A stretch of 64,000 bases of DNA from Magallana gigas (GCF_963853765.1 NC_088861.1:21356281-21420280); one strand, 5' to 3'. Shown: positions 5,396 through 61,500, counted from the stretch's first letter. The notes: generated by a model from the letters alone, not told the origin. Program-made: numbers and translations.

Positions 5396-5507
5396 GCATT
5401 ACCTTAAATATATATACTTCTAATGTACAGTGTAATGTTGTTTAGCTTTAATGCTTCTTATGGTTCTGAAAACTCCAGAGAAATGAAAAAATTATAATCA
5501 TTTTTAC

Positions 5508-5588
5508 CTGATTTGCTGGACCTGCAGTTGCAATGGCAGCCAATACATTTCCTCCTATAGTTGAAATCATATCCTTAAACTTCTTTAC
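5508..5588 (-). CDS. MVP: MVP exon (81 nt, phase 0) encoding VKKFKDMISTIGGNVLAAIATAGPANQ
   Basis: Acceptor tttaatatag|GTAAAG and donor AATCAG|gtaaaa. It aligns with human [27 protein letters not shown]. Confidence 0.7.
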
Positions 5589-5807
5589 CTATATTAAATG
5601 AATTTGTTGTACCTTCGTTATTGTTTCATGACCATGGTTTAAAGGAATTAAGTTGTCACAAAATGTTATTTGGAATATACATAATAATTCCGTGTAATTG
5701 TTTTCTGCACTTTATTCCTCAAAACCTTCTAATACAATTGATTACAAATTGAAGATTGAAAAATATATGAAATTTATCTTGCTCTATTTTTACTTATTTA
5801 TTCAAAC

Positions 5808-5888
5808 CTCAATATTTGTCATTTCCCTTTCCTTATGAATTTCTAGTCTGTTCATATTTCTCGCATAATCTAGTTCTTGTTTTCGTAG
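5808..5888 (-). CDS. MVP: MVP exon (81 nt, phase 0) encoding LRKQELDYARNMNRLEIHKEREMTNIE
   Basis: Acceptor ttgttctacag|CTACGA and donor ATTGAG|gtttga. It aligns with human [27 protein letters not shown]. Confidence 0.65.
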
Positions 5889-7367
5889 CTGTAGAACAAA
5901 AAGGTTTAACACATAATTTTACAAAATAAAATAGTCAGAGATGTTAAAAATTATATTTGCATAATTCAAAAAGTCTTTCGAGAAAAAAGGCAAAAATAAA
6001 AAACTCATGACACAATTTGCCAATAAATAATTTAATTGAACTTAAGAACACCGTATAACAAATAAAGATATTGAAAACTCCAATTACATGTACATGCATT
6101 CTCTCTCACATTGTTTACTCAGGATTTGAGTGCCAAATTCCGATTGAAGTAAAGTTAAATATCATGAGCTAAATTTTTTTTAAACAACAGTATTCTTCAA
6201 ATGAAAATCTTTCGCCATAACATTTGATATCTTTATTATTCTATGGAATTAGACTTAAACAAAAATAATCGTTTGGTAAAACAGAGGAAATTTAAGTGAA
6301 GATTTTATCTGTTAGTCAATAGTCACATATAATGTTTAAATATTTTCTTTTGGTTTTATCTAGTACCATCTTTTGGATAATTGTGAGGCACATATTGCAT
6401 TTTCACCATTTCAATAAATGGATTTTTCTTTAGGAAAACCTGGTTAAAATGTTTAAAAACTTTGATCATTTACCTTGTATTAATTTCATGCCAGCAAAAT
6501 AAGGACAATATATTTAGTTCATGACTATGAATGTTTTAGTGTTATCATTATTCAGTTTTTGTTAAATTACCGGGTAAATCAAATGTTGGTGGAGTTCGCA
6601 AAATTGATAGAAAAAATTCCGACTGGGATATTTTTTAAAAATTGGTTCTCAAAACCTAACTATAATTCTTGGTATCTAATTAGCCACACTGCCCTTTATT
6701 AACAGTATTTCAATTTTAAAGAGTTAATTTGTATGTAATATTTTCACAATTAAGAAAACCTTAATCACATTGTAAAATTTTAAAGGATTCTTTTTCAATT
6801 ATCAAAAAAATATAATACAAAGGCCATTAACTCAAAAAGTTTTTAGAAGGTTAAAAATAACACTACAAATTTCTATAACATACAACATATGGTATTTCAT
6901 TTTCATCAGTGGGATTTTTTCGCATTCTGAGTAAACGTAATTCTTAAGTACGAAAATGCTATCATTTATTGTATATTTGAAGTTTAAATATTTTTTGACT
7001 AAATATAAGACAAAATATAGTCACTTTGTCTGCTTTTGTATACATGAATTTTTGTATTTTATTTGGTTAAATAAAGTGTACTTGGAAGGATAGTGCCCTC
7101 TGTTGAACTTGTACAAAATAATCTAAAATGCACATTTTTAGGCATTATAATTTTACGAAGTTTATACTGAACACTAAAAGTCTTTTAAGTCAAAAAATGA
7201 GGGGAACGCAATTTAGCTTCTTCTTACCATAGAGATGCGTCACACCAAATGGTAACAATTGGCCTTGTAGTTTTCAAGGAGAAGTTGAAAATGTATTATT
7301 AACGCACAACGCATGACGACGGACGAAGACCAATTGCTAAAATAACCAATTGCTTAAAAAAACGCAC

Positions 7368-7432
7368 CGCTTCCTGTGTGGTTAACTGAGCATTATGCTC
7401 TATTCCTGCTGCTTCTGCCCTCAGTTTTGCAG
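7368..7432 (-). CDS. MVP: MVP exon (65 nt) encoding (A)KLRAEAAGIEHNAQLTTQEA
   Basis: Acceptor ctttatgtcttttatag|CTGCAAAA. The proposed donor GAAGCG|gtgcgt is less certain; the ORF otherwise runs on to a stop. It aligns with human AKLKAQALAIETEAELQRVQK. Confidence 0.55.
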
Positions 7433-7638
7433 CTATAAAAGACATAAAGTCACACGATAGTAAAATGAAGTTTAAACCTTTACAATTTGATATCGATTTA
7501 AATGACAATACAATCATATCTTATTTATCCTATTTTATATGGTAAGAACCTAATAAGTTGTATGAACTTGCGTTCAAACCATTTGTAAGTGTATTAAAAC
7601 CATCATATTTTCTATGAATAAGCTTTGGATGAACTCAC

Positions 7639-7857
7639 CTTCAATCTCGCTCTCACACTCAATGATAATGCGCTCGGCCTGAGCTTGGGCCTCTGCTTTA
7701 GCCTGTCCAGAAGACTCCACTGCAGCAGTGACGGCTTGAAGTTCCAAGAGTTTACATCGTTCTTTTTCAGATTCTTTTTCATTATAGAGTTTTTGCCTCT
7801 CCAATTCACCCCTGGCTATTTGTTCATTTCTGGCTGCCTCATGCGATGCTGCTGCCT
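7639..7857 (-). CDS. MVP: MVP exon (219 nt) encoding [72 protein letters not shown]
   Basis: Acceptor aagttcaatag|AG GCA and donor GATTGAAG|gtgagt. The alignment to human [70 protein letters not shown] is strong. Confidence 0.75.
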
Positions 7858-9497: not shown

Positions 9498-12400
9498 TTT
9501 AGAAGAAAATATGACATCATCGGCTTTGATTTTCGACAACAAAACATGTTATGGAAAAAAGAGTGAAGTACTAAGGCTTTATTGTATCGCTGTTTATAAG
9601 TCTCTGACATAGCTTTTTTAAATATTTGCATTTCTTCCAATTAAGATAGAAAAGATTAAACTTGTTTACCCCTGGTCCCTAAAAACCTTAATTGGGTAAC
9701 GCAAGAGAAAATCATTATATTGTTAGGATATATAAACGTATTATACCAAATCTAGCTTTATTAACCTTTCATAAAATAGCTCTCATTAAAGGGCTATAGA
9801 TAGAAGATTTTAGAGCTCTTTGATCCCCTAATTTAAGGGGCCAGTCCCTTTTTCCTAATATCAAATGAAATGACATTTAATTCTAAACACATTTTGTCAA
9901 CAAGTGTTTAGAAACTCGTTACCGTTCTGGAGATATATGAGAAAGAAGGTTTTAGGGGCCGATCCCTTATCTCCTTATAGGGGCCGTTTGACGAAATGTT
10001 GAAGGTTGCATACTGTTAAGAACATCATTTTGAACAACTTTTCTTGTGTACTGCATTTCATAATATTTTTCCTTTCTGAGATCTAGGTGATCAAAATTTT
10101 GGACTTTTAGCCCCTAAAAACCCCTAATTACAAAACACATGATAAAATCATTACATTGCTTGAATACATAAATGTAAGATAAACACATTTGCTTCTATAA
10201 CCTTTCACAAAATATCTCTTGGTAAAGGACTACAAATTAAAGACTTTGGAGCCCGTTAGTCCCCTTATTTTAGGGGCCAGCCCCTTTTCCTTGATATCAA
10301 ATGAAAGGTCATTTAATTCTAAACAAATTTTGATCAACAAGTGTTTAGAAATTTGTTACCGTTCTAGAGATATATGAGAAAGAAGGTTTAAGGGGCCGAT
10401 CCCTTAACTCCTTATAGGGTCCGTTTGACGAAATTTTGAAGGTCGCATATTGTGAAGAACATAATTTTAAACAACTTTTCTTCTGTACTGCATTACAAAA
10501 TATTTTTCCTTTCTGAGATATGGGTGATCACAATTTTGGACTTTTGGCCCCTATAAACCCTTAATTACGTAACACATAATAAAATTATTACATTGCTTGG
10601 ATATATAACTGTGAGATAAACATATTTGCTTCTATAACATTTCACAAAATATCTCTCAGTAAACGGCTACAGATGAAAGACTTTTGGGCCCTTTTGTCCC
10701 CTAATTTGAGAATCCAGCCCCTTTTTCTTGATATCACATGAAAGGTCTTGTAAATATAAAAATTTTTTACAATACATGTTTTAACAAAATATTTTTCAGA
10801 AGAGAGATAAACAAAGAAAACCATGAAAAATTATGACTTTTTTTAGTCTCAATTTTCGGGACCAGACTAGCTTTAACGCCTTTTGAGCATGACAAATATG
10901 AATGCCAAATGGCACATCTACAATTTATTGTCTACAATCCCTGAAAGTTTGAACTCAGTATCTTTTACCGTTTAGGAGGAGGTCCCTGGACAAGCCGACC
11001 CTCTGAAAATCGCTAAAACGTCACTATCTTGAGAACGGAAATGACGTCATCAAAATAAAAAAATGTATATTAAGTTTAGATCAATATCAATTTGATCTGA
11101 AAGTTTCATGAAAATCGGCCGAGCCGTTTTTGAGATATCGCGGGCACAAAATTTGTAAGAAAAAAAAAGAAAAATAATAACTAGACTCTTGTTGCTATAG
11201 CAACAAAAAGGTCTTCCGTTCCTCATGTATAAATCTGTACAAAAGATCCATTTCTCTTGTAAACAGAAAATGGATATTATTTATACTAAAAAGGAATTCC
11301 CAAGAAATAAACAAAACAAAAAGACAAAACTTCATTTTGAGTACTTTCTGTGACGACCGGAAGTTACGCCGGATCATACAAAACATAGTAAACATATCTT
11401 CATACATTGCCTTGTATTTCCTCAAATTTTGGATGTTCAAGTTTTTGTTAGTTATAATATCTCGTTAAGAAATGGTTTTTGTCTCGGGACCGGAAAGGAA
11501 CGAACGGAAGTGATTAAGAAATTGAAAATACGTATTTTAGTACATTTACCTATGATAAGTTATTGTTCATCACATTGAGTAATATGCTAAAAAAAAATTC
11601 TAATTTAAAAAAAAAAACCCTTTTATTGCTTTTATTTTATCACTTCGAGTGAAAACCGGAAGTGACGTACGACCAAATGGAACCCGTTAAACACATGTTT
11701 GTTCAAATGTCCATTATCCATAAAAGTTTTCTGTCTTGATCTCTTAAAGTTTCTGAGATCTTGGGGTAGTTTGTTTTTTAAAAAGAAGGCTACCTGAGAT
11801 ATTTGAGATGTCTCAACGGAAGTAGAACTTTTTTGTTTTTTTTCACCATCTGTGGATGACCTCCTGTATTTTTATAACTAAAATGTTACTTCCATGCCAA
11901 ATAACCAACATATTTTTAAAAAATCAGAATTTGGTGTACTTTCTGTGACGACCGGAAGTTACGCCGGATGAAACAAAATAGTGTTAACACGTGTCCATAC
12001 ACAGGTCTATAATCCTACAAAGTTTGGTTGTTGAAGTCGTTACCGTTTTTGAGATCTCGTCGATATAAGGTTTTTTGTCTCGGGACAGGAAACGGACAAA
12101 CGGAAGTGCTTAATGAAATTTAATTTTTTTTTATCTTGTTACTTTCCTATTTTACATTATTATTCATCGAAGTAGCTAAAACTATCAAATAAAAACAGTT
12201 TTATGGATAAACAATTTGATTTGTTTGAACTCTTCCGCTGTGGACCAGAAGTGACGGAAGACAAAATGAAACTGTTTAAACACATCTCCAATCAAATGTC
12301 TATAAGTAGTGAAAGTTTCGTGTCTTAATCACGTACAGTACCTGAGAACTTGCGGGTACAAAATATGTTTTAAAAAAGCTTCCTGAGATAATCGAGATAT

Positions 12401-15400
12401 CTCACCGGAAGTAGATTTTTTTGGTTTATTTTACATTGTATAGATGACATATGAAAGGATCTATACTAATATCTTTATTCTATGGGAGATAAATTAAATA
12501 TGTAAAAACAAAAAAAATTGAAGTGCTTCCGGTGACGACCGGAAGTTACGCCGAACAAAACAAAAATGTTTAAACACATCTCCAACTATAGGTCTATCAT
12601 CCCAGAAAGTTTGGATGTTCAAGTGTTTACCGTTTCTGAGATCTCGTTGGTACAAGCTTTTTCAACGCGGGACAGGAAACGGACGACCGGAAACGATTTT
12701 TGACAAAATGAAAAAAACGCCTCGAGATATTGTCATTTTCTTCCATTCCAGAAAATTTCACATAAATCTATCCAGTCATCTCTGAGAAATCTTGTGGACA
12801 AAAACTGGGAAAAAAATAATAATAACTAGACTCTTGTTGCAAAAGCAACAAAAAGGTCTTCCGTTTTGATATACATGTATCAATTTAACTGTAAGACATT
12901 GCTTCTCTCACATAAAAAAAAGTGGATATGATAATTATTGTGAATGATATATCCAGACGTTACTTACATGTAAAACAACGAGAATGAAAAAAGAAATCAA
13001 TTTCTGAAGTACTTTCTGTGACGACCGGAAGTAACGCCGAACTAAACAAAAATGTTAACCATTTGTACAATCATATGTCAATCTTTCCTCAAAGTTTTGT
13101 TGTTCACGTCTTTGCCAAATCTAAGATCTCTTTGAAACAATATTTTTTGTCTCGGGACCGAAACGGACGAACGAAAGTGATTAATAAAAACAAAAGGTGG
13201 TATTTCTCGTACATTTGCTTAATGTACATCACTGTTTATCAGGCTAGATGAAATTCTAAGAAAGTCAGTTAAACTTGTTAAAAACAGGATTTGTTTGAAC
13301 CCTTCCGGTAAGAACCGGAAGTGACAGTTGACAAAATTAAACCCGTTAAACACATCCCCAATCAAAATTCTATCAATCATGAAAGATTCGTGTCTCAATC
13401 ACTTACAATGACGAAAATCTCGCGGACATCAAATTTGTAAAAAGGAAAGCTGCATAGAGATATTTGAGATATCTCACCGGAAGTAAAATTTATTTGCCAA
13501 TTTAACATTATATAGATGACATATGTGAGATTGTATACTGATATTTTCATTTTATGTAAAATGAATAAAACAAATTTTTGAAGTGCTTCCGGTGACGACC
13601 GGAAGTTACGCCGAACAAAACAAAATAGTGTATACACATGTACATACATAGGTCTATCATCCCACAAAGTTTAATTGTTCAAGTCGTTACCGTTTTTGAG
13701 ATCTCTAGAAATCAAGGTTTTTTGTCTCGGGACAGGAAACGGACAAACGGAAGTGCTCAATGTAAATTGTATTTAATATGTTTTTGTACTTGCCCTTTTT
13801 ACTTAATTTTTCATCGACTTCACTACAAATATCAAAGGAAAACAGTTAAACTGATAAACAGCTTTATTTGTTTGAACTCTTCCTGTGTGGACCGGAAGTA
13901 ACGGAAGACAAAACGAAGTCGGTTAAACACATCCTCAATCAAATGTCTATCATCTATGAAAATTTTGTGCTTTGATCACTTATAGTTTCTGAGATCTCGT
14001 TTGTACAAAATGTGTTTCAAAACAGCTACCTGAGATATTTGAGATATCTCACCGGAAGTAGAATTTTTTCGTTGAGTTAACATCACATAGAGAACCTATG
14101 CATAGATTTATACTTATGTATTTATTTTATGGAAAAGGAATTTTAAGCGAAAAAGTAGTTATTTTTGAAGTGCATCCGGTGACGACCGGAAGTTACGACG
14201 AACAAAACAAAATAGTGTGAACACATCTACAACTATAGGTCTATCATCCCACAAAGTTTGGATGTTCAAGTCTTTACCGTTTCTGAGATCTCGTTGATAC
14301 AAGTTTTTTCAACGCGGGACAGGAAACGGACAAAACGAAAGTGCTCAATCTCAGTTGTATTCAATATTTCTTGTATACTTACCCTTTGTACTTCATTTCT
14401 CATCCAGCAAACTACGAATATCAATGGAAAAGATTTAAACTGATAAACAGTTCGATTTGTTTGAACTCTTTCTGTGTGGACCGGAAGTGACGGAAGACAA
14501 AACGAAACCGGTTAAACACATCTTCAATCAAATGTCTATCATCCCTGAAAGTTTTGTGCTTTGATCACTTATAGTTTCTGAGATCTCGTTTGTACAAAAT
14601 GTGTTTCAAAACAGCTACCTGAGATATTTGAGATATCTCACCGGAAGTAGAATTTTTTGGTTGAGTTAACATTGCATAGATAACCTATGCATAGATTTAT
14701 TCTTATATATTTTTTTTTATGGAAAAGGAATTTTATGCGAAAAAGTAGTTATTTTTGAAGTGCTTCCGGTGCCGACCGGAAGTTACGACGAACAAAACAA
14801 AATAGTTTAAACACATCTACAGCTATGGGTCTATCATCCCACAAAGTTTTGATGTTCAAGTCTTTACCGTTTCTGAGATCTCGTTGATACAAGCTTTTTT
14901 AATGCGGGACAGGAAACGGACGACCGGAAATGATTTTTGACAAAATGAAAAAATCATCTCGAGATATTGTCATTCTCTTTCATTTTAGAAAATTTCACAT
15001 TAATCTATCCAGCCATCTCTAAGAAATCTCCTGGACAAAATCTTGGAAAAAAAAAAAATAATAATAACTAGAGCAAAGCTCGTTGCAAAGCAACGAGTGG
15101 GTCTTCCGTTAATGTCGGAAGTAAAGCTGGAAGTTCCTGTTAGAAGCAGAGCTCTTAAACCAATAACAAGAGTAACTAAAATAAAAAGACGAAAAAAATC
15201 GAATTATTCCTGGTACGACTTAACAAAATCCGAATGATTTTAAGTACGACTTAACAAAAACCTTTCTGATTTCAAGAACGACTTAACAAAAAAATCCGAA
15301 TGTGTCCAAGTACGACTTAACAATTATTTTTGGTACGAGTTAATATTACTTTGAACATTACGCTATTTTTTAAACCAAGGACGCGGAATAAAAATTTCCG

Positions 15401-19280: not shown

Positions 19281-20735
19281 ATGGATAAGAGTCAATGCAA
19301 AAAAGATACTGATCGAATGATTTCTTCCCAAAAAGACGTCAAAACCGGTGAATGGAAGGATGACATTCGTGAGTGGCCACAAGTAGAATATGGCGATATC
19401 TACAATTATTTGATTTTAAGTAGAGCATGTGACGGCGAAAAAATGAAAAATTACAAATCATTGGACAGTTACAATTATTTTAAAAGCGGTTCTGTCGGGA
19501 AAATTCTTCATTTTGTTATTCACAATACAGTTATTCTGAAATCTGAAGTGCGCCCGTCACAAAAAATAAATTCAGAGTTTCACAATGCATGGGTATTCTG
19601 TGATATGATCGGCACAATTCTAAACGGGGGATGTTCATGTATGGCTGGGAACAGTAAAACGTGCAGTCATGTAGGCGCACTTTTGTGGAAAATTGAGCAT
19701 GCTGTAAGGTTAGGTTTTACGGGAAAATCTTGTACAGATGAGCAGATGCAGTGGAATAGGGGTGCGACAAGAAACCTTGAACCAGGTGTTCTTGAAGAGA
19801 TGGACTTTAAAAAACCTAAATATGGCAGTGAGGTTAACAACAATACTGAAAAACCACAAAATACAAAATCTATCTTCCCAATGTTTGTATCACATCAATC
19901 TTTTAAATATTTTGTGGAAAACTCAGAACTTAAAGAATTATTTCTTTTAGAAAATTCACTTTTAAGTAAATCTATGCACGCAAATATAAACAAATCTCTT
20001 TTCGAATCTTCATCCGAGCCTCGTACTGAGCATACAGGTGAACTATCTTGTGAAAAGTGTTGTGCGTTTTATAACAGGTACATGTACATTAAACTTAATG
20101 ATGCCCAAATTCAATCGTTATCGATGGCAACAATTTCACAAAGTGAATCTGAATTGTGGCACAACAGTAGAAAAATAAGAATAACTGGCAGTAGTGCTCA
20201 CAAGGTTCCCGTTCGTGACACTACAAATAGTGATAACTTCTTAAGAGAACATATGTACCCTTCCTTCACATCAAACAAATTTACTAGACATGGACAAGAA
20301 GGTGAAGAGCCCTGGCTAAGTGTTTCCCCAGATGGAATAGTAACCAATGCTGATGGTTCAAAATGTCTTTTGGAAATTAAATGTCCAATACTTAAGAATG
20401 ATCAAACACTTGACAGCTTATTTACAATTGGTAAATATGATGTTGTGAAATCCTTGCAAAATGGTACATTATATGTTAAGCATAACAGTTCAAGGGGCTA
20501 TTACCTTCAAATGCAGTTAACTTTGCATGTAACACATATGCAGCTGTGCAAACTTGTTATTTGGACAACTAATGAATACAAGGTCATTGATGTACAATAT
20601 GACCAACAGTTTTGTGAAGCAGCTATTTCAAGACTATGTTGTTTTTACTTCAACAAACTTTTACCAAGAGTAGTTGATGACTTTGAATGTGGCAGATTTA
20701 AAATTAGTAAAAAATATGTTAAATTTTCTAACTGA
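19281..20735 (+). CDS. Intronless 484-aa ORF with a SWIM-type zinc finger (GGCSCMAGNSKTCSHVGALLWKIEH, CxCx(n)CxH) and a C-terminal YqaJ-like viral-recombinase / PD-(D/E)XK exonuclease domain (RITGSSAHKV ... VSPDGIV ... LLEIKCP)
   Basis: The full-length ORF is given in the supplied track. Domain calls rest on recalled family motifs. The ORF lies antisense inside an MVP intron and has no predicted introns, so it is probably transposon-derived or domesticated. Confidence 0.6.
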   Translation: MDKSQCKKDTDRMISSQKDVKTGEWKDDIREWPQVEYGDIYNYLILSRACDGEKMKNYKSLDSYNYFKSGSVGKILHFVIHNTVILKSEVRPSQKINSEFHNAWVFCDMIGTILNGGCSCMAGNSKTCSHVGALLWKIEHAVRLGFTGKSCTDEQMQWNRGATRNLEPGVLEEMDFKKPKYGSEVNNNTEKPQNTKSIFPMFVSHQSFKYFVENSELKELFLLENSLLSKSMHANINKSLFESSSEPRTEHTGELSCEKCCAFYNRYMYIKLNDAQIQSLSMATISQSESELWHNSRKIRITGSSAHKVPVRDTTNSDNFLREHMYPSFTSNKFTRHGQEGEEPWLSVSPDGIVTNADGSKCLLEIKCPILKNDQTLDSLFTIGKYDVVKSLQNGTLYVKHNSSRGYYLQMQLTLHVTHMQLCKLVIWTTNEYKVIDVQYDQQFCEAAISRLCCFYFNKLLPRVVDDFECGRFKISKKYVKFSN

Positions 20736-52453: not shown

Positions 52454-54845
52454 ATTTACTTTTACTACACACGAACTGTACAGTATAAAAATATTCAAAT
52501 AGTCAAAAGTTTTCCAATATAATTGTATCAACTAATGTACCAGGTATGTCACATCTGTACATGTATATGTTGTGAAAGTAAAAAATTCAATTAAAGAAAG
52601 ATAAAAAATAAAGTCATCATCAACGTATATGTATGCATGTTGCATACAGAAAGTCGGGAAGGGGTGGCTTTACAGTATTGCAGTGTACTTGACAGTCCGG
52701 TATAGATCAGATTAGTTTATTTTAGGCAAAATGCATCTGTCAGGTAAAATTAAATTTTTAAGTGTGTTAAATCATAGTTTATAAACAATTTTTAATTAAT
52801 CTGTGTACCTGTGTATATTCTGTATTTGTTTGAAATATTTCCTTATTATTTTTCTATCTGTGATTTAACAATTATAGCTGCGTGGATCAAATTACATGCT
52901 TAGCCTGTTGTTGGGCAATATTTCTATCTACAAAGTTGGTCAGTGTTATCATATTACAATGTACTAATAACATGCATTAGATAAGAGTAATCAGGGGATT
53001 GATACCTACAGGGGGGAGTCTGGTATTTATGTTGATTGTTTAGAAGAAGAAGCAATTGTGAAGATGCTTGATTAAGAAGCTATTATTTTCATTCAAATCT
53101 ACTCCTACCTTTACTATTTGTACTGGTGTGCTATTATGGATTAATGCAGTAAGTGTGTATTTGCCGAGGTACATAACTACGTAACTTATGAGATACTTTG
53201 TGAACTGAGTTTTGTGCTTACAAGAAGTCATGGGGCCTAAAAGAGCGTCCCGACCCGCGCCATACAATCCAGACTTGCCAGTGAATTGGACGGCAGCAAG
53301 ACTAAAGGAAGCTTTGGATTCTCGCGGAATCGCATACTCCTCTAACGCACGAAGATCGGCGTTAGTTGGTATGTACAGAGAGTGAAGTCCCAGGTTCTAT
53401 AAAAAGAACTTCGAATGATAGTGCGCGTTCCCATGATCCTTCACACCAAAACATCAATGGCGACTCGAATGATAGGCAATCCCCTGATGCCCTACACCAA
53501 AACAACAATGGCGATCACAGTGTACTAATCGATCTCGAGTCGAAATTATCTTCAACAGTGCAGTCGCTGCAACAAAATGTAGTACATCTTACATCACGAG
53601 TGAACTCGTTGCATGCAACTGCTATAAATCCATCGTCGACTGCAAGGAATAATGATGAACCAGGAAGCCAAACTCCGGCGAATTCAACTACAACCACAAT
53701 GAATCCCGAGTCTTCTTTCACACTGGACACGGCCTTTGCCCTATTTCCGCGGCAGCTGCAGGATCGCCAACACAGGGCCCGGAATTGAAGAGGACGAGAT
53801 TCGGATTCGCAGCAGAATCTCTCCTTCTGGTAGAGACCATCTCGCCTCATCTGTGCCTCCAAATTACATCAGGTAAGGATGTCAATTTAGCATCCTTGTT
53901 AATACCATATTTCTCTCCCCCTGACGAAAAAGATGATAACAAGAAGCCGGATAAACGACTGCAGAAGTTGCTAAACATCGGTGAGTTCATTCAAGCTTTC
54001 GGAAAATACAAAAATATAATGTGTCCGTATATAAGCATATCCCCAAAGAAGACAGGAGTTAGATTTGTACGATAGGGATATCATTGACATGGCTACCGGC
54101 TACACAGGCAATGGGTTCTACGAATATCATCGTCAATTCAGTCTTATGGCCGCTTCACATCTTAAGTATAATAACATTCTCATTGACTAGTCTGTGTGGA
54201 ATAACACTTTATTTTGTAATTTGTTTGCGAATGCCAGACCGCAGTCATGTGCAACCTGCAACAGTACGCTGCACTCTACAGGCTTTTGCCCTATTACCGA
54301 CAAAGTTAGGGATAAGAGAAATGGGGACATGGATTTTTATGGACGTCGGAGAGAATTTCATGAAGGTAGAGAAATATGTAACAACTTCAATGGCTTCAGA
54401 GGCTGTCACATACCTAGATGCAAGAACGCCCACATCTGCATCAGTTGCAGAGGAGACCACTCTTAACACAATTGCAGCTCAAAAAATCCCAGCAGCCCCA
54501 CACAAATGGGGCTTTCAAAAAGATGTAACATCCAGTTTCGATAATAAGTAACAACTCCCATCAACATAGACAGTCTTCAAAATCTTCTACAACATCATCC
54601 CGACACCCAATTTACAGAATATCTTATGAATGGTTTATGTTTTGGCTTTCATACTGGCTTTCAGGATCTTCCAAAGAATTCTCTGGAATGCAAAAATCTA
54701 AAGTCAGCTTCATTAAACTCGGACAGCGTTACAGAGATCGTAAACTAAGAACTAAACCTGGGTTACTTGTATGGTCCATTATGCTATTAGACTATAATTA
54801 AATTATGCGGGAAAGGAGCATCACTTATTAAAACCGACATTACTG

Positions 54846-55635
54846 ATGCCTTCAATATCATGCCTATATCATATGAGTTATGGCCATATCATGGAATTAA
54901 GTGGGATGATAAATACTATTTTTTCAAGCGCCTTGTCTTTGGAAGCAGATCAAGTCCAAAGATCTTTGATGCCCTGTCTTCCGCTGTGTGTTGGATTGCA
55001 GAGAAAAAATACAAGATATCATACCAAATGTGCTGCACCTGTTGGATGACTTCCTAGTTGTGGTCCCACTATTTGATGATGCTCATAAAGTGATGGAGAG
55101 ACTCCTGGGGATACTGGTATTTAGAACCCTCGGGATTCCTCTATCGGAGAAGAAAACCAAAGGACCTTGTACAGAACTAGAATACCTTGGGATAATATTA
55201 GACTCCTGGAACATGGAAGCCAATTTACTGTCGGAGAAGATTGATCATATCTTATCTATCGATAATTCCTTCAAAACACGCAAATCATGTACAAAGAGAG
55301 AATTGCTCAGTTTGCTGGGACATCTCAATTTTGCTTGCAGAGTTGTTCTGCCAGGTCGATCTTTCATTTCTCACCTGATAGCCTCATCAACCACAGAGGA
55401 GCCGCTTCATTTCCATGTCTACTTAGACAGTTTGTGTGGGGACAACGTTGCTATGTGGTCAGATTTCTTAAAAAGCTGGAATGGAGTGTCCTTTTTCATC
55501 GACGATAACATGACAGTCAGGCTGCGGATATGCAGTTGTTTACAGACGCAACCCTTACATCCTTTGGAGGCTTTTACCAAAATAAGTGGTTTCAAGGAGA
55601 TTTCCCTGACAACATTTCCAAGGAAAACACATTGA
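54846..55635 (+). CDS. Reverse transcriptase module of element 3, split across two overlapping frames (54846-55057 and 54988-55635)
   Basis: F..LVFGSRSSP and LDDF motifs. Confidence 0.55.
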
Positions 55636-56255
55636 TGGTTCTTTTTGAGCTATATCCTATCGTTATGGCCTGTCTTCTGTGGGGTGATACTTGGCCAAGG
55701 AAACGCATTCTTTTTCATTGTGACAACCAAACAACTGTTGACATTATTAGGAAAGGATGCTCAAAAGTTACAAGCATAATGAAACTAATGAGAACTTAAA
55801 CCTTTCATGCAGCCTGTAACCATTATATCATTCATGCTGTTCATATTGATGGCGTCAAGAACACTATTGCTGACTCTCTCTCTCATACCAGATGTAGAAG
55901 TTTCGAACCCTGGCACCAGAAGCCGACCTGATGCCAACACCATGCCTGGAACATTCGCAGCTAATGAAGGACTGAGGGAGCAGTTAATAAACCAATTATG
56001 GGATGCATCCTTAAGCAGTTCAACCAAGAGGGCCTACAGTTCAGCGTTACAATGTTTTCTGACATTCATTTCTATGAGTGGAATTGTGTTTTAATCCTAC
56101 TGTCTTCCAATAGTAAATGAAACTTTGCTTAATATGTATTTTGTCACTCATTGTAAATCTGTTTTAAAACTCAAGTATGACACTATCAAATTGTATTTAG
56201 CAGGTTATTTAGTAGGGAATGGTTTTAGTATATTAGAGCAGGTCATGGAGATTTT

Positions 56256-56876
56256 ATGAATAACTTTAACCAGCTACAGTATGTTTTGCGAGGGGTGAAA
56301 AAGTCTCAAAACAATGTCTCTAACAACAGATTACCTATTATTGCCAGTATATTGAAACAACTGTGGCATGAACTTGACAATGGAGCTTTTTCTCCATTTC
56401 TAGATCTGATGTTGAAATGTATGTTCTCCTGTGCCTTTTTTTCGGGTTTTTTAGATGTGGTGAAATTACTTGTAAAAAAGCAAACTCTGTACATTTTCAA
56501 AAAAAATTTTGATGTTAGCTTTGGATGTAATTGTTTTGTCCTGAGGTTGAGAATGTCCAAGACCGATCCATTCTCACACGGTGTTGATATTACAATATTT
56601 GAGAATGATGTTTTCAAACCTGTACATAACATGTGTCTATATATGCAGACCAGAAGATCTTTGTCGTGCTCTCCACATTCACCTTTGTTCATTACGGATG
56701 AATTCAATCATGGACTTATGCATAGAGATAAATTTATTCACCATCTGAGATCCTTACTCATGCGAATTGGCCTGAACGATTCTAGATATGCAGGCCACTC
56801 CTTCAGGATTGGGGCAGCCACAGCTGCAGCCGCAGCAGGCGTTGAAGACTATGTGATTAAAGATCTGGGTAGATAG
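56256..56876 (+). CDS. Tyrosine recombinase ORF of element 3, 206 aa
   Basis: C-terminal GHSFRIGAATAAAAAGVEDYVIKDLGR resembles the HxxR...Y catalytic tail of YR enzymes. Confidence 0.5.
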   Translation: MNNFNQLQYVLRGVKKSQNNVSNNRLPIIASILKQLWHELDNGAFSPFLDLMLKCMFSCAFFSGFLDVVKLLVKKQTLYIFKKNFDVSFGCNCFVLRLRMSKTDPFSHGVDITIFENDVFKPVHNMCLYMQTRRSLSCSPHSPLFITDEFNHGLMHRDKFIHHLRSLLMRIGLNDSRYAGHSFRIGAATAAAAAGVEDYVIKDLGR

Positions 56877-57296
56877 TCTTTTGACTGTTATGTTAGATAT
56901 ATAAGAACTGATCCCGAAGTTCTCAAAGATGCGCAAAGAAAGCTGTGTAACTTTTGACTTCATATATGTGTACCTTTTGTGTGTTTTGTAAACTAAATTA
57001 TTGGTCATATATGGTATGGAAATAGGTATTAATTTTCAAATTCAACCAATCCTTCATCAAACATATCCTTTGGGGTTTCACTCATTACTTCGTTCATTTT
57101 GCATTCATTCCTTGGGAATTTCGCCCCAAGTCTATGTTTTAAATTTTTGTTCGAAGTCTTTAAGGCACTTAGATATATTAATTATACTATTTTTATACTA
57201 TAGGAATTATGCATATGTTGGTTAATGTAGTCTAGTTGTCTAGTAAGTATTTGAATACACCGGTAGTCTGGTTAGTATTGTAGCTTTGAATACAAC

Positions 57297-57720
57297 TTGC
57301 AGTTGGTTTATTCCTTTATGCTCACTGGGACCAGCCCCGAGCGCAATCTGTTCTTGTCTCGAGGCCCGCTGGAGATCAGCCCCGGGTCATGCTTCGTTCT
57401 AATTTATGCTCGCTGGGATCAGCCCCGAGCGCAATCTGTTCTAGTCTTGAGGCCCGCTGGAGATCAGCCCCGGGTATGCTTTGTTCTAATATATGCCCGC
57501 TGGGATCAGCCCCGGGTTATGCTTCATTCTAATTTATGCTCGCTGGGATCAGCCCCGAGCGCAATCTGTTCTAGTCTTGAGGCCCGCTGGAGATCAGCCC
57601 CGGGTATGCTTTGTTCTAATATATGCCCGCTGGGATCAGCCCCGGGTCATGCTCTGTTCTAATTTATGCTCGCTGGGATCAGCCCCGAGCGCAATCTGTT
57701 CGTCTTGAGGCCCGCTGGAG
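57297..57720 (+). repeat. ~60-bp minisatellite in about 7 copies, organised as ~120-bp dimers
   Basis: Unit ccgctgggatcagccccgagcgcaatctgttctagtcttgaggcccgctggagatcagccccgggtatgctttgttctaatatatgc, read directly. The ORFs at 57297-57662 and 57493-57708 are artefacts of the repeat. Confidence 0.85.
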
Positions 57721-58079
57721 ATAAGCCCTGGGCATGGGTTTTGTGTCGTGGGAAGGAATGAGTAGCCCCCAAGCGCCAAACTATTTACATATGTATTTTG
57801 GGTGTTGACAAATATATGTTTATTATTGTTTTATGTATGATTGTATTTCGGTTTGGAGCGTTTGTATTTTTAGCTATACTAAATGTTTGGGTATAAGACC
57901 CAATAAATTTTTTGCTTCCTCTTAACTCTTGTTAATTGTTTATGAACAGATCATTAGTATAGGACTACAACATTGCATCCTCAAATAATTTGATGAAGTG
58001 AAGCCATTAATCATTACCTTTTGATTAAAGTAGAGGTTTATGCATACTAGGTATATTTAGGAAACAATTTAGGAAATTC

Positions 58080-58560
58080 AATTTAAAACAAGAGATGGTT
58101 GTGAAACACTTATGCCCCCCTCCCTGGGAAACATCCACAAAGAAAAGAACGTAAACTGCAAATATTTGGAATTTTTCCAAGTCAAAGGGGCATAACTGTC
58201 GAAAATGGCTCAATCATACCCAATATCGAACTTGACCTAGATATCATCATGATAAACCTGTCTACCAAACTTTATTTCAATATGTTCAACCTCTGCAAAG
58301 AAAATGAGCGGAAACTGCAAATAACTGGAATATTTCTAAGTCCAAGGGCCATAACTCTGTCGAAAATGGCTCGATCGTACCCAATATCGAATTTGACCTA
58401 GATATTAACATGATAAACCTGTCTACCAAATTTCATTTCAATATGTTCATTCTCTGCGAAGAAAATGAGCGGAAACTGCCCTTCTAAGTCCAAGGGCCAT
58501 AACTCTGTTGAAAATGGCTCAATCGAACCCAATATCGGACTTGACCTAGATATCATCATG
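58080..58560 (+). repeat. Tandem ~130-bp repeat x 3 (gtcgaaaatggctcaatc.tacccaatatcgaacttgacctagatatcatcatgataaacctgtctaccaaa.tt.atttcaatatgttca.c.tctgcaaagaaaatgagcggaaactgc...). A related copy lies at 38860-39070
   Basis: Direct reading. Confidence 0.75.
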
Positions 58561-58859
58561 ATTAACCTGTATTAACAATGTACATTGAAATAAAACCCAC
58601 CCATGCCATGCTAATACAATGGAAGCATTATTATAGTGATCAAAATCTATTAGAATCAATCACTCTTACATGTACCTGTAGTCATAAATATGTTTGAATG
58701 CAACTAAAACTATAAGACACTAAAAGCCATCTAGTGTGATGATTCCTGTGTATTGCACTTAAATCTGTAAAATTCAATAAAATCATCAATATTAATGAGT
58801 AAATAAAATATTAAACAAGAATAGAATTCCTGGGTCCCCCGCCGGTCAAGCAGTATACT

Positions 58860-60479: not shown

Positions 60480-61500
60480 AAAGATCTGGTCTACAAAACC
60501 ATGAATTCAGTTTTCCTTTCAGGTGTGTGGGAGTAAAGAAGATAATTTTTTAACATTATATGCATCAACACCTCTTAGCGCTCTACATCCATTTCCGCCC
60601 TGCCCTAGAGTCAAAACCCATACTCCAGGGGACATGAAAATTTAAATTTCAGTAGACTAGAACTTCCTGGTAAACGTAATTATAAGTCAGTTTTTTATAC
60701 AGATGTGTGAGAATAAAGAAGAACATTTTAAAACATATGCATTAACACTATATTGCCATATTGCCCCCCCCCCCCCCCATGTTCTAAACCCCTGACCCAA
60801 GGGCCATGAATTTCACAATTGAGGTAGAGGAGTTAGTGGAGTTATATGGGAGTAGAGAAGATTTTCTAAGATTAAACACATTTTTACTATATGGCCATAT
60901 TGGCCCCACCCTTTAGCCTGAACCCCTGACCCAGGGGTCATGCATTTCACAATTTGGTAGAGGGCCTCATGGTCATCATAACCATGCATTTAGTTTTTAA
61001 CAAATATATATGGGAGTAGAGAAGAGATTTTCTAAAAATTAATACATTTTTACTATATGGCCATATCCCCCCCCCCCCCCCCTCGAGCCTGAACCCCTGA
61101 CACAGGGTCATGAATTTCACAATTTAAGTAGAAGGCTTCATGGACATCATAATCATGTATTTAGTTTTTAACAAATATCTTTGGTAGTAGAGAAGAAGAT
61201 TTTCTAAGATTTAATACATTTTTACAATATGGCCATATTGGCCCCACCCTAGAGCCAAAACCCCTGACCCAGGGGCCATGAATTTCACAATTTTGGTTTA
61301 AGGGCTTCATGGACATCATAACTATGTAACCACTTTTTTCCTCACATGTGTGGGAGTAGAGAAGAAGATTTTTGAAAATTTGGCTATTTTTTTGCATATT
61401 TGGCCCCACATGTGGTGCCCTGGGGGTGGTAGAGTCATGAATTTCACAATTTAGATTCCTCTTACCAAAGAGATGCTTCACATAAAACTTACACCAAACA
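60480..61500 (+). repeat. ~180-bp satellite in about 5 units, each with a palindromic core cccctgacccaggggccatgaatttcacaatt.ggtagagggcttcatgg
   Basis: Units at about 60650, 60840, 61020, 61200 and 61380. The core motif is also present as a single copy at 23815-23880. Confidence 0.75.

Follow-up and report, generated by a model that had tools for sequence, protein, structure and literature searches.

Tyrosine-recombinase (YR) retrotransposons of the Ngaro superfamily are defined in the literature by two features, the lack of a methyltransferase (MT) domain and the possession of split direct repeats laid out around their open reading frames (ORFs) as A1-[ORFs]-B1A2-B2. Variants of this plan have been described, including amphibian Ngaro elements with an ORF for an SGNH hydrolase and recombination-derived derivatives of the Ngaro elements of Cafeteria. 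In DIRS-1, the internal junction, termed the internal complementary region (ICR), is experimentally essential. Here we describe a bivalve element from Magallana gigas, located in a stretch of 64,000 nucleotides (GCF_963853765.1 NC_088861.1:21356281-21420280), hereafter the window, which is AT-rich (~35% G+C) and whose protein matches are all bivalve. We consider, with a probability of about 0.9, that positions ~52830-57950 on the plus strand represent one non-functional copy of a Ngaro-superfamily YR retrotransposon belonging to a bivalve lineage sister to zebrafish Ngaro1. This copy, element 3 in the following, is a dead member of a new family inside a known superfamily and as such a real but ordinary feature; the only part going beyond routine annotation is a hairpin array in its 3' terminal repeat, a modestly interesting candidate cis-element recognized by sequence comparison.

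Conceptual translation in three frames (53230-56955) gave a gag-like ORF1, a reverse transcriptase (RT) with RNase H (RH), and a YR, in this order and all on the plus strand, in agreement with the module set of Ngaro, which lacks a DDE integrase. A sequence-only reading of the window had reported RT, RNase H, and YR modules in the same order as, but with sequence distinct from, two other YR retroelements (elements 1 and 2), and both statements hold, the RT/RH identity to these elements being ~23%. The motifs quoted in that reading also lie where it had put them (NWTAARLKEALDSRGIAYSSNARRSALV at 53284-53367, FGSRSSP and (H)LLDDF in 54860-55060, and GHSFRIGAATAAAAAGV at 56793-56843). Domain searches support the RT and YR identities: RVT_1 scores 32.1 bits on the window RT against a Pfam gathering score of 29.6, and a search with the YR stretch recovered 511 homologues, of which many carry precomputed matches to PF00589, PF13495, or PF02899 and which include hemichordate relatives in Saccoglossus and Ptychodera, the PF00589 scores of intact relatives being better than that of the window copy. 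The RNase H stretch shares 43% identity (E 5e-28) with the DrNgaro1 RH domain taken from a published RH alignment (PMC6681497 supplements). The closest DNA to element 3 was found in Logan run SRR14492801, at 92% identity.

Reference sequences for placement were taken from PMC6681497 (supplement 16 for RT and supplement 18 for YR). In BLASTP searches of the RT set, the window copy and four relatives are 47-53% identical to their top match, Ngaro1_DR (48% for the window RT), and all eight best matches are Ngaro-like. The best YR matches of the same copies are all Ngaro-like as well, comprising DIRS32_ACar (41%, E 1e-18), DIRS22_NV, and DIRS6_CGi, the placement of the YR being based on these BLASTP matches and not on a tree. 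In a neighbour-joining RT tree (176 columns, 200 bootstraps, numpy implementation), the family groups with Ngaro1_DR with 98% bootstrap support and with all Ngaro elements with 98.5%, and the RT of element 3 falls outside the DIRS and PAT clades. VIPER/TATE elements form a separate RT clade (100% support) and are absent from the significant BLASTP matches of both RT and YR. The phylogenetic comparison that the sequence-only reading had suggested therefore places element 3 in Ngaro and not in DIRS1, PAT, or VIPER.

No MT domain was found in element 3 using Pfam, and the RH stretch, which reaches to ~55928, abuts the YR stretch, whose start is at 55918-56074; the intact ORF2 of relatives, 522 aa in length, has RVT_1 as its sole Pfam domain. 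Around element 3 no flanking inverted repeats longer than 29 nt (76% complementary) were detected, and the loci of relatives contain direct repeats and no inverted pairs. Because the RT and YR placements, the missing MT, and the split direct repeats of relatives (see below) fit the published definitions, we assign element 3 to Ngaro, a superfamily other than that of its neighbors. The proposition that it is a DIRS1-like or PAT-like element that only looks different through decay is scarcely credible and already contradicted. It does share module order and general YR motifs (HSxRxGxAT) with such elements, and DIRS1-like elements are found nearby, but its RT and YR best match Ngaro references with the bootstrap support given above, it has neither the Dam-like methyltransferase stretch nor the inverted terminal repeats (ITRs) seen in element 1, and its intact relatives carry split direct repeats, not inverted ones. 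Two further candidates were rejected: a Crypton, in which the YR is the only enzymatic module, on account of the RT/RH immediately upstream on the same strand, and a host gene or domesticated YR, on account of too many stops and frameshifts and the structure of a repeat family.

As the window copy has no split direct repeats, the loci of relatives were examined. Intact members of the family are ~6.4-6.7 kb in length and have the structure A1 - ORF1 - ORF2 (RT/RNase H) - ORF3 (YR) - B1 A2 - short spacer - B2 (Table 1). B1 adjoins A2 in all four relatives, from Pecten, Saccostrea, Ostrea, and Mytilus, which is the classical Ngaro arrangement; intact terminal repeats were not found in Mytilus locus L004 or Argopecten locus L009, and both were left out. 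The search for split direct repeats proposed by the sequence-only reading, which we call decisive, was thus negative for the window copy itself and positive for its relatives, the repeats being perfect in Pecten, Saccostrea, and Ostrea. The flanks of these three elements, inspected by eye, have no duplication beyond one to three shared junction bases, the 3' end of the window copy being too imprecise for this comparison.

Several peculiarities were observed in the loci of relatives. The identity between A1 and A2 stops exactly before a conserved C-rich motif, CCCACCC(A/G/T)CC, in all four (L001 6049-6060, L003 11643-11655, L005 13095-13110, and L008 10987-11000), one possibility being that this is a candidate priming or strand-transfer site. 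The Pecten copy sits within a 38-bp satellite running on at both sides (L001 1-737 and 7433-11341). In the Mytilus copy, which is flanked by 880-bp direct repeats of 98% identity (L003 4072-4949 and 12436-13312), a 366-bp tandem repeat is present in place of most of A1 (L003 4945-5932). The Ostrea edulis copy (L008 7578-11935) has perfect A and B repeats, a body of ~2 kb, and a 582-aa protein with YR and no RT, and is a derivative with an internal deletion, presumably non-autonomous; a gene model with FAD-oxidase domains spans its position.

Comparison of the non-coding ends of the window copy with the Pecten element gave only marginal scores, and the closer Saccostrea element was needed to place them. 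On the 5' side, 52976-53023 matches the inside of Saccostrea A1 (L005 7732-7779) with 84% identity (E 1e-8), and the motif TTGAAATATTT at 52830 aligns with the A1 starts of Ostrea (TTGAAATTTGATT) and Saccostrea (TTGATATTTAATG). On the 3' side, the 60 bp at 57068-57127, comprising the end of the 3' untranslated region (UTR) and the start of B, are 90% identical to the Saccostrea B1 region (E 6e-19), 57753-57781 inside B are 93% identical to Saccostrea, and the B-end motif resembles the ..TGTATAAA of relatives. Based on the Saccostrea anchors and the A1 start motif, the element extends from ~52830 to ~57950. The interval proposed from sequence alone, 53230-57720, captured the coding body and omitted A1 with the 5' UTR (~52830-53229) and the tail of B (57721 to ~57950). 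B opens with a small conserved palindrome, ATTCCTTGGGAAT in the window, GAATTCCAGGGAATTC in Pecten (L001 5478-5493), AATTTCGGGGAAATT in Mytilus (L003 10682-10696), and ATTCCTGGGGAAT in Saccostrea (L005 12045-12060), and in Ostrea a 35-bp segment with this palindrome is duplicated just before B2 (L008 11060-11129).

A second A or second B is absent from the whole window, as searched with A and B segments, and around element 3 neither split direct nor inverted repeats exceeded shuffles (repeat search, blastn with word size 7, and Smith-Waterman against shuffles). The sole borderline match, 33 bp at 79% identity between 52833-52865 and 57810-57842, is AT-rich and is left uninterpreted. Most likely, A2 and the second B were lost secondarily when B1 recombined with B2, an event that would delete A2 and with it the internal junction on which a further replication cycle depends. 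It is rather unlikely that they were lost instead by 3' truncation, through a deletion or the insertion of downstream repeats, even though another repeat family starts by 58087 (58087-58124 matches 38855-38892 at 92%) and the end of B is placed only to 57846-57952. B seems to reach a terminus like that of relatives, as a clean exchange between B1 and B2 would give; moreover, direct repeats of 0.8 kb that are identical offer an evident substrate for recombination, and the derivatives known from Cafeteria arose by recombination. Lacking functional ORFs and a B1|A2 junction, the window copy cannot move on its own.

The ORFs of the window copy have several frameshifts and at least a dozen in-frame stops; nine stops fall within the tblastn high-scoring segment of ORF1, and ORF3 has internal stops as well as frameshifts. 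A 179-bp deletion at 54780/54781, visible as a gap relative to a 92%-identical Logan contig (L002), takes out the RT fingers. The ATG at 53230 is aligned with the ORF1 ATG of relatives, and alignment of the window ORF1 with those of Logan contig L006 (three intact ORFs), Pecten, and Mytilus identified a conserved N-terminus (MGPKR..YNP.LPENWT.A.LK..L...GI....NA.R..LV) as well as a conserved coiled-coil stretch and core region. The Cys/His-rich segment reported previously at 54194-54466 is present and corresponds to the conserved zinc-finger cluster of ORF1, whose Cys/His spacing is maintained in three motifs (C-x2-C-x4-H-x4-C, C-x8-C-x4-C-x3-H, and C-x2-C-x3-H-x4-C); two Mytilus ORF1 homologues are named 'C3H1-type domain-containing' in UniRef. 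A SAP-like helix pair, proposed in the same reading, is plausible but not established, since the match of the N-terminus to Pfam HeH/LEM (E 6.8e-4, 19.7 bits) is below the gathering score of 28.9, the two helices are predictions (AlphaFold, residues 22-31 and 38-49 with a 6-residue linker, pLDDT 70-79), and Foldseek was uninformative, the 51-aa N-terminal model giving no significant match. Sub-threshold HeH matches were obtained for three of the four family members having this N-terminus.

Several points weigh against the account of the locus given so far. The window copy has no split direct repeats of its own, and this defining feature is taken from relatives. The Phage_integrase (PF00589) match on the window's own YR reaches only E 0.16, no Pfam RNase H family was matched, and intact ORF2 gave no match to PDB sequences. 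The tree was built by a distance method from a short domain, its references having been copied from an alignment in a supplement, and both the 3' end of B and the end of A1 were placed by weak similarity.

Table 1. Position of element 3 and its parts, of the neighboring YR retroelements in the window, and of the terminal repeats of relatives (coordinates of relatives refer to their own loci).
Feature	Position	Strand	Details
A1, 5' terminal repeat	52830..53075	+	Approximate boundaries; Saccostrea A1 match and start motif
5' untranslated leader, A1 to ORF1 ATG	53076..53229	+	Position in alignment with Saccostrea and Ostrea elements
ORF1, gag-like pseudogene	53230..54541	+	HeH/SAP-like helix pair (plausible) 53290-53373, coiled-coil stretch, conserved core, CCHC - CCCH - CCHC zinc-finger cluster 54248-54475
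ORF2, RT/RNase H pseudogene	54548..55972	+	RT core ~54794-55200 with HLLDDF box; RNase H 55518-55928
ORF3, YR pseudogene	55918..56954	+	N-terminal SAM-like domain and catalytic domain with GHSFRIGAAT ... RYIR
Block 1, conserved 3' UTR segment just upstream of B	57060..57092	+	CTTTGGGGTTTCACTCATTAC; complementary to block 3
B, 3' terminal repeat, single copy	57099..57950	+	Starts with palindrome ATTCCTTGGGAAT (57105-57117); 3' end uncertain, 57846-57952
Tandem array inside B	57315..57736	+	Period 43-44 bp (9.5 copies), 130-bp higher-order unit (2.9 copies, 95% identical), TRF
Block 3, inside B	57752..57784	+	GGAATGAGTAGCCCCCAAGCGCC; complementary to block 1
Element 1, DIRS1-like	29854-34508	-	ORFs: gag 353 aa, RT/RH and Dam-like MT 689 aa, YR 402 aa
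PAT-like fragment	36728-36874	+	DIRS1_CGi match, 41% over 49 aa, E 6e-12
Element 2, DIRS1-like, decayed	44.6-50.2 kb		
Pecten maximus, L001	A1 738-1068, A2 5718-6048, B1 5468-5723, B2 7177-7432		A 331 bp, B 256 bp, both 100% identical
Saccostrea cucullata, L005	A1 7578-7826, A2 12846-13094, B1 12033-12847, B2 13144-13958		A 249 bp, 100%; B 815 bp, 99.9%
Ostrea edulis, L008	A1 7578-7837, A2 10727-10986, B1 9891-10729, B2 11096-11935		A 260 bp, 100%; B 840 bp, 99.9%
Mytilus edulis, L003	A1 truncated, A2 present, B1 10668-11393, B2 11718-12449		B 733 bp, 98%

The sequence-only reading had described a 60-bp minisatellite following the element as a separate feature. Neither the period nor the position could be maintained: Tandem Repeats Finder (TRF) gives 43-44 bp with a 130-bp higher-order unit, and the array lies between two B anchors (57068-57127 and 57753-57781), and thus inside the 3' terminal repeat, of which it is an integral part. 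It consists of ~10 stem-loop modules with a core, GG(G/AG)ATCAGCCC, and complementary 5-nt arms, the invariant 11-nt core of the units being GGGATCAGCCC. Allowing one mismatch at most, nine of the 12 core matches in the window fall inside the array, compared with 0.32 expected for the window as a whole. Two GGGATCGGCCC copies, one mismatch from the core and 437 bp apart, occur on the minus strand far from element 3 (9956-9966 and 10393-10403) and are probably unrelated to the array. In Saccostrea and Ostrea, B1 and B2 each contain an array with the same core at the corresponding position, with 18 exact copies of GGGATCAGCCC in the Saccostrea locus and 12 in the Ostrea locus, in every case in sense orientation. 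Short satellites abound in bivalve genomes, other arrays are found just downstream of the element (58138-58570 and 60843-61380), and the Pecten and Mytilus relatives adjoin unrelated satellites, all of which would suit an independent satellite lying beside the element by chance. Such a coincidence is nonetheless very improbable, given that the same 11-nt core was found only in the B1/B2 arrays of the Saccostrea and Ostrea relatives, that both anchors bracketing the window array are homologous to Saccostrea B, and that the number of core matches is far from the chance expectation.

The arms of the units differ between and within species while remaining complementary. Arm pairs are GCTCG/CGAGC and GCCCG/CGGGT in the window, GCCTG/CAGGC, ACTCC/GGAGT, GCCTT/AAGGC, and CCTCT/AGAGG in Saccostrea, and ACCCG/CGGGT and GCTCC/GGAGC in Ostrea. 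Cognate arms pair at four or more of five positions in all 21 window and Saccostrea units and at all five in 57%, as opposed to 0.8% with five of five among non-cognate combinations. Five of the six window units with a GCCCG arm have G.T(U) instead of a pair, a replacement that is tolerated on the plus strand only. At the equivalent place, arrays of other small palindromes are found in Mytilus, where they lie inside B (GCTGCTGGTATCCACCGCAGC; fold z-score -4.4), and in Pecten, where they immediately precede B2 (CCCTGTTCCAGGG and AACCTGTTCCAGGTT; fold z-score -3.5). On the other side, the window's own array units fold no better than shuffles (z -0.3 to -1.0), so that the case for structure rests on covariation and not on energy, and a tandem array that evolves in concert can look conserved within a species. 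No Rfam family was found in 52500-58200 at E <= 1, and full-text literature searches returned no description of such arrays in Ngaro elements, which is weak negative evidence.

A long-range complementarity accompanies the array. Block 1, conserved in four species, is part of the 60 bp that share 90% identity with Saccostrea, and block 3 is 93% identical to Saccostrea 12688-12717, with GAGTAGCCCC invariant in four species. In each of the five species, no other segment of B forms as good a duplex with block 1 as block 3 does (-25 to -34 kcal/mol; -24.9 in the window), and the resulting pairing of 20-25 nt is conserved and brackets the array.

The units of the array could alternatively be dyad-symmetric binding sites in double-stranded DNA, recognized by the YR or a host factor, or be without function, rather than hairpins in RNA or single-stranded DNA. 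Core sites with inverted repeats and repeated accessory sites are common targets of tyrosine recombinases, as known for Cre, FLP, and lambda Int, and the poor folding of the window units would be in keeping with this alternative, which we nevertheless regard as unlikely. Variable complementary arms together with an invariant asymmetric core are the pattern expected of a stem with a recognized loop and not of a base-specific double-stranded half-site, and neither the strand-specific tolerance of G.T(U) replacements nor the constant location of the core on the sense strand would be anticipated for sites in duplex DNA.

According to the published DIRS/Ngaro model, a terminally incomplete transcript would be reverse-transcribed, and the B2|A1 junction of a circular cDNA would be restored by copying the internal B1|A2 junction; this circle would then be recombined into the genome by the element's YR, with no duplication of the target site. 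If the units are hairpins, the array would fold in the sense-strand RNA or the plus-strand cDNA, where it might be read during packaging by the zinc fingers of Gag, or during assembly of the recombination substrate by either the YR or Gag. We tentatively suggest that the conserved module in B of this bivalve Ngaro1 lineage, combining the stem-loop array, invariant core, covarying stems, and 20-25-nt closing pairing, may serve as a cis-acting signal for the YR or for the zinc fingers of Gag, as judged from comparative sequence analysis. To our knowledge, apart from the internal complementary region of DIRS-1, almost nothing is known of cis-acting sequences in YR retrotransposons, and the hairpin array and bracketing complementarity in B of five bivalve species provide concrete sequences for tests.

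Searches using tblastn and the reference sets recovered four pieces of YR retroelements at 30-57 kb of the window: element 1, a PAT-like fragment, element 2, and element 3. The earlier count of four pieces within 28 kb is therefore correct, the fourth being the PAT-like fragment, and so is the designation of element 3 as a third YR-retroelement family, because elements 1 and 2 group with DIRS1-like references for both RT and YR and a PAT-like fragment is present at 36.7 kb. Three YR-retroelement superfamilies (DIRS1-like, PAT-like, and Ngaro) are thus neighbors in a 28-kb stretch. Element 1 appears to be an almost intact element of the DIRS1-like type, with ITRs (29905-29969 and 30131-30173 versus 34441-34508), a perfect 88-nt internal inverted repeat (29854-29941 and 30052-30139), and a weak Dam-like methyltransferase match in the 689-aa ORF (E 8e-4). 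The 35-38 kb region around the PAT-like fragment has unusually high GC skew (+0.18 to +0.35).

Elsewhere in the window, an intact 484-aa ORF at 19281-20735 on the plus strand has a YqaJ-like recombinase/exonuclease domain (PF09588, 31.8 bits versus a gathering score of 22 bits) and is probably part of another mobile element. The two tandem arrays downstream of element 3 have periods of 161 and 171 bp, respectively, and ~3 copies each; these and the 38-bp segment at 58087-58124, repeated 19 kb away, are unrelated repeat families bounding element 3 on the 3' side. For annotation purposes, ~52830-57950 should be masked as one decayed Ngaro element including its internal array, not as genes and a separate satellite.

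Among known systems, element 3 most resembles DrNgaro1 of Danio rerio, the founding member of Ngaro. Both have a gag-like ORF, RT/RH, and YR, and no methyltransferase, and have in common the HLLDDFL box and an SSPKIFD..S.A.CWI motif; their RTs are 47-53% and their RH domains 43-45% identical, and they are sister groups in the RT tree with 98% bootstrap support. The A1-[ORFs]-B1A2-B2 termini that define Ngaro are a feature of the relatives of the window element, and the host phylum, Mollusca, is different. The fourth ORF reported in amphibian Ngaro elements, encoding an SGNH hydrolase, is not present in element 3. The Repbase elements DIRS-6_CGi and DIRS-7_CGi of Crassostrea gigas are also bivalve and Ngaro-like and belong to the same superfamily clade (98.5% bootstrap), but have only 31-35% RT identity to the family and fall into another Ngaro sub-clade, with sea-urchin, Xenopus, and Anolis elements and not with Ngaro1_DR. 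DIRS1-like elements (such as DIRS-8_NV and elements 1 and 2) are likewise YR retrotransposons with gag, RT/RH, and YR, and with a presumed circular cDNA integrated by the YR, and differ in having a Dam-like methyltransferase domain and, as termini, inverted repeats accompanied by an internal complementary region.

For the array, the closest parallels are functional analogies, namely integron attC sites and retroviral psi stem-loops, whose short hairpins, like those proposed for the array, have stems that vary while staying complementary, and conserved bases that are left unpaired. The array is unrelated to them in sequence and differs in being tandem and in its location in a retrotransposon terminal repeat. 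Integron attC sites are read by a tyrosine recombinase as folded single strands and psi stem-loops by zinc-knuckle Gag/NC proteins.

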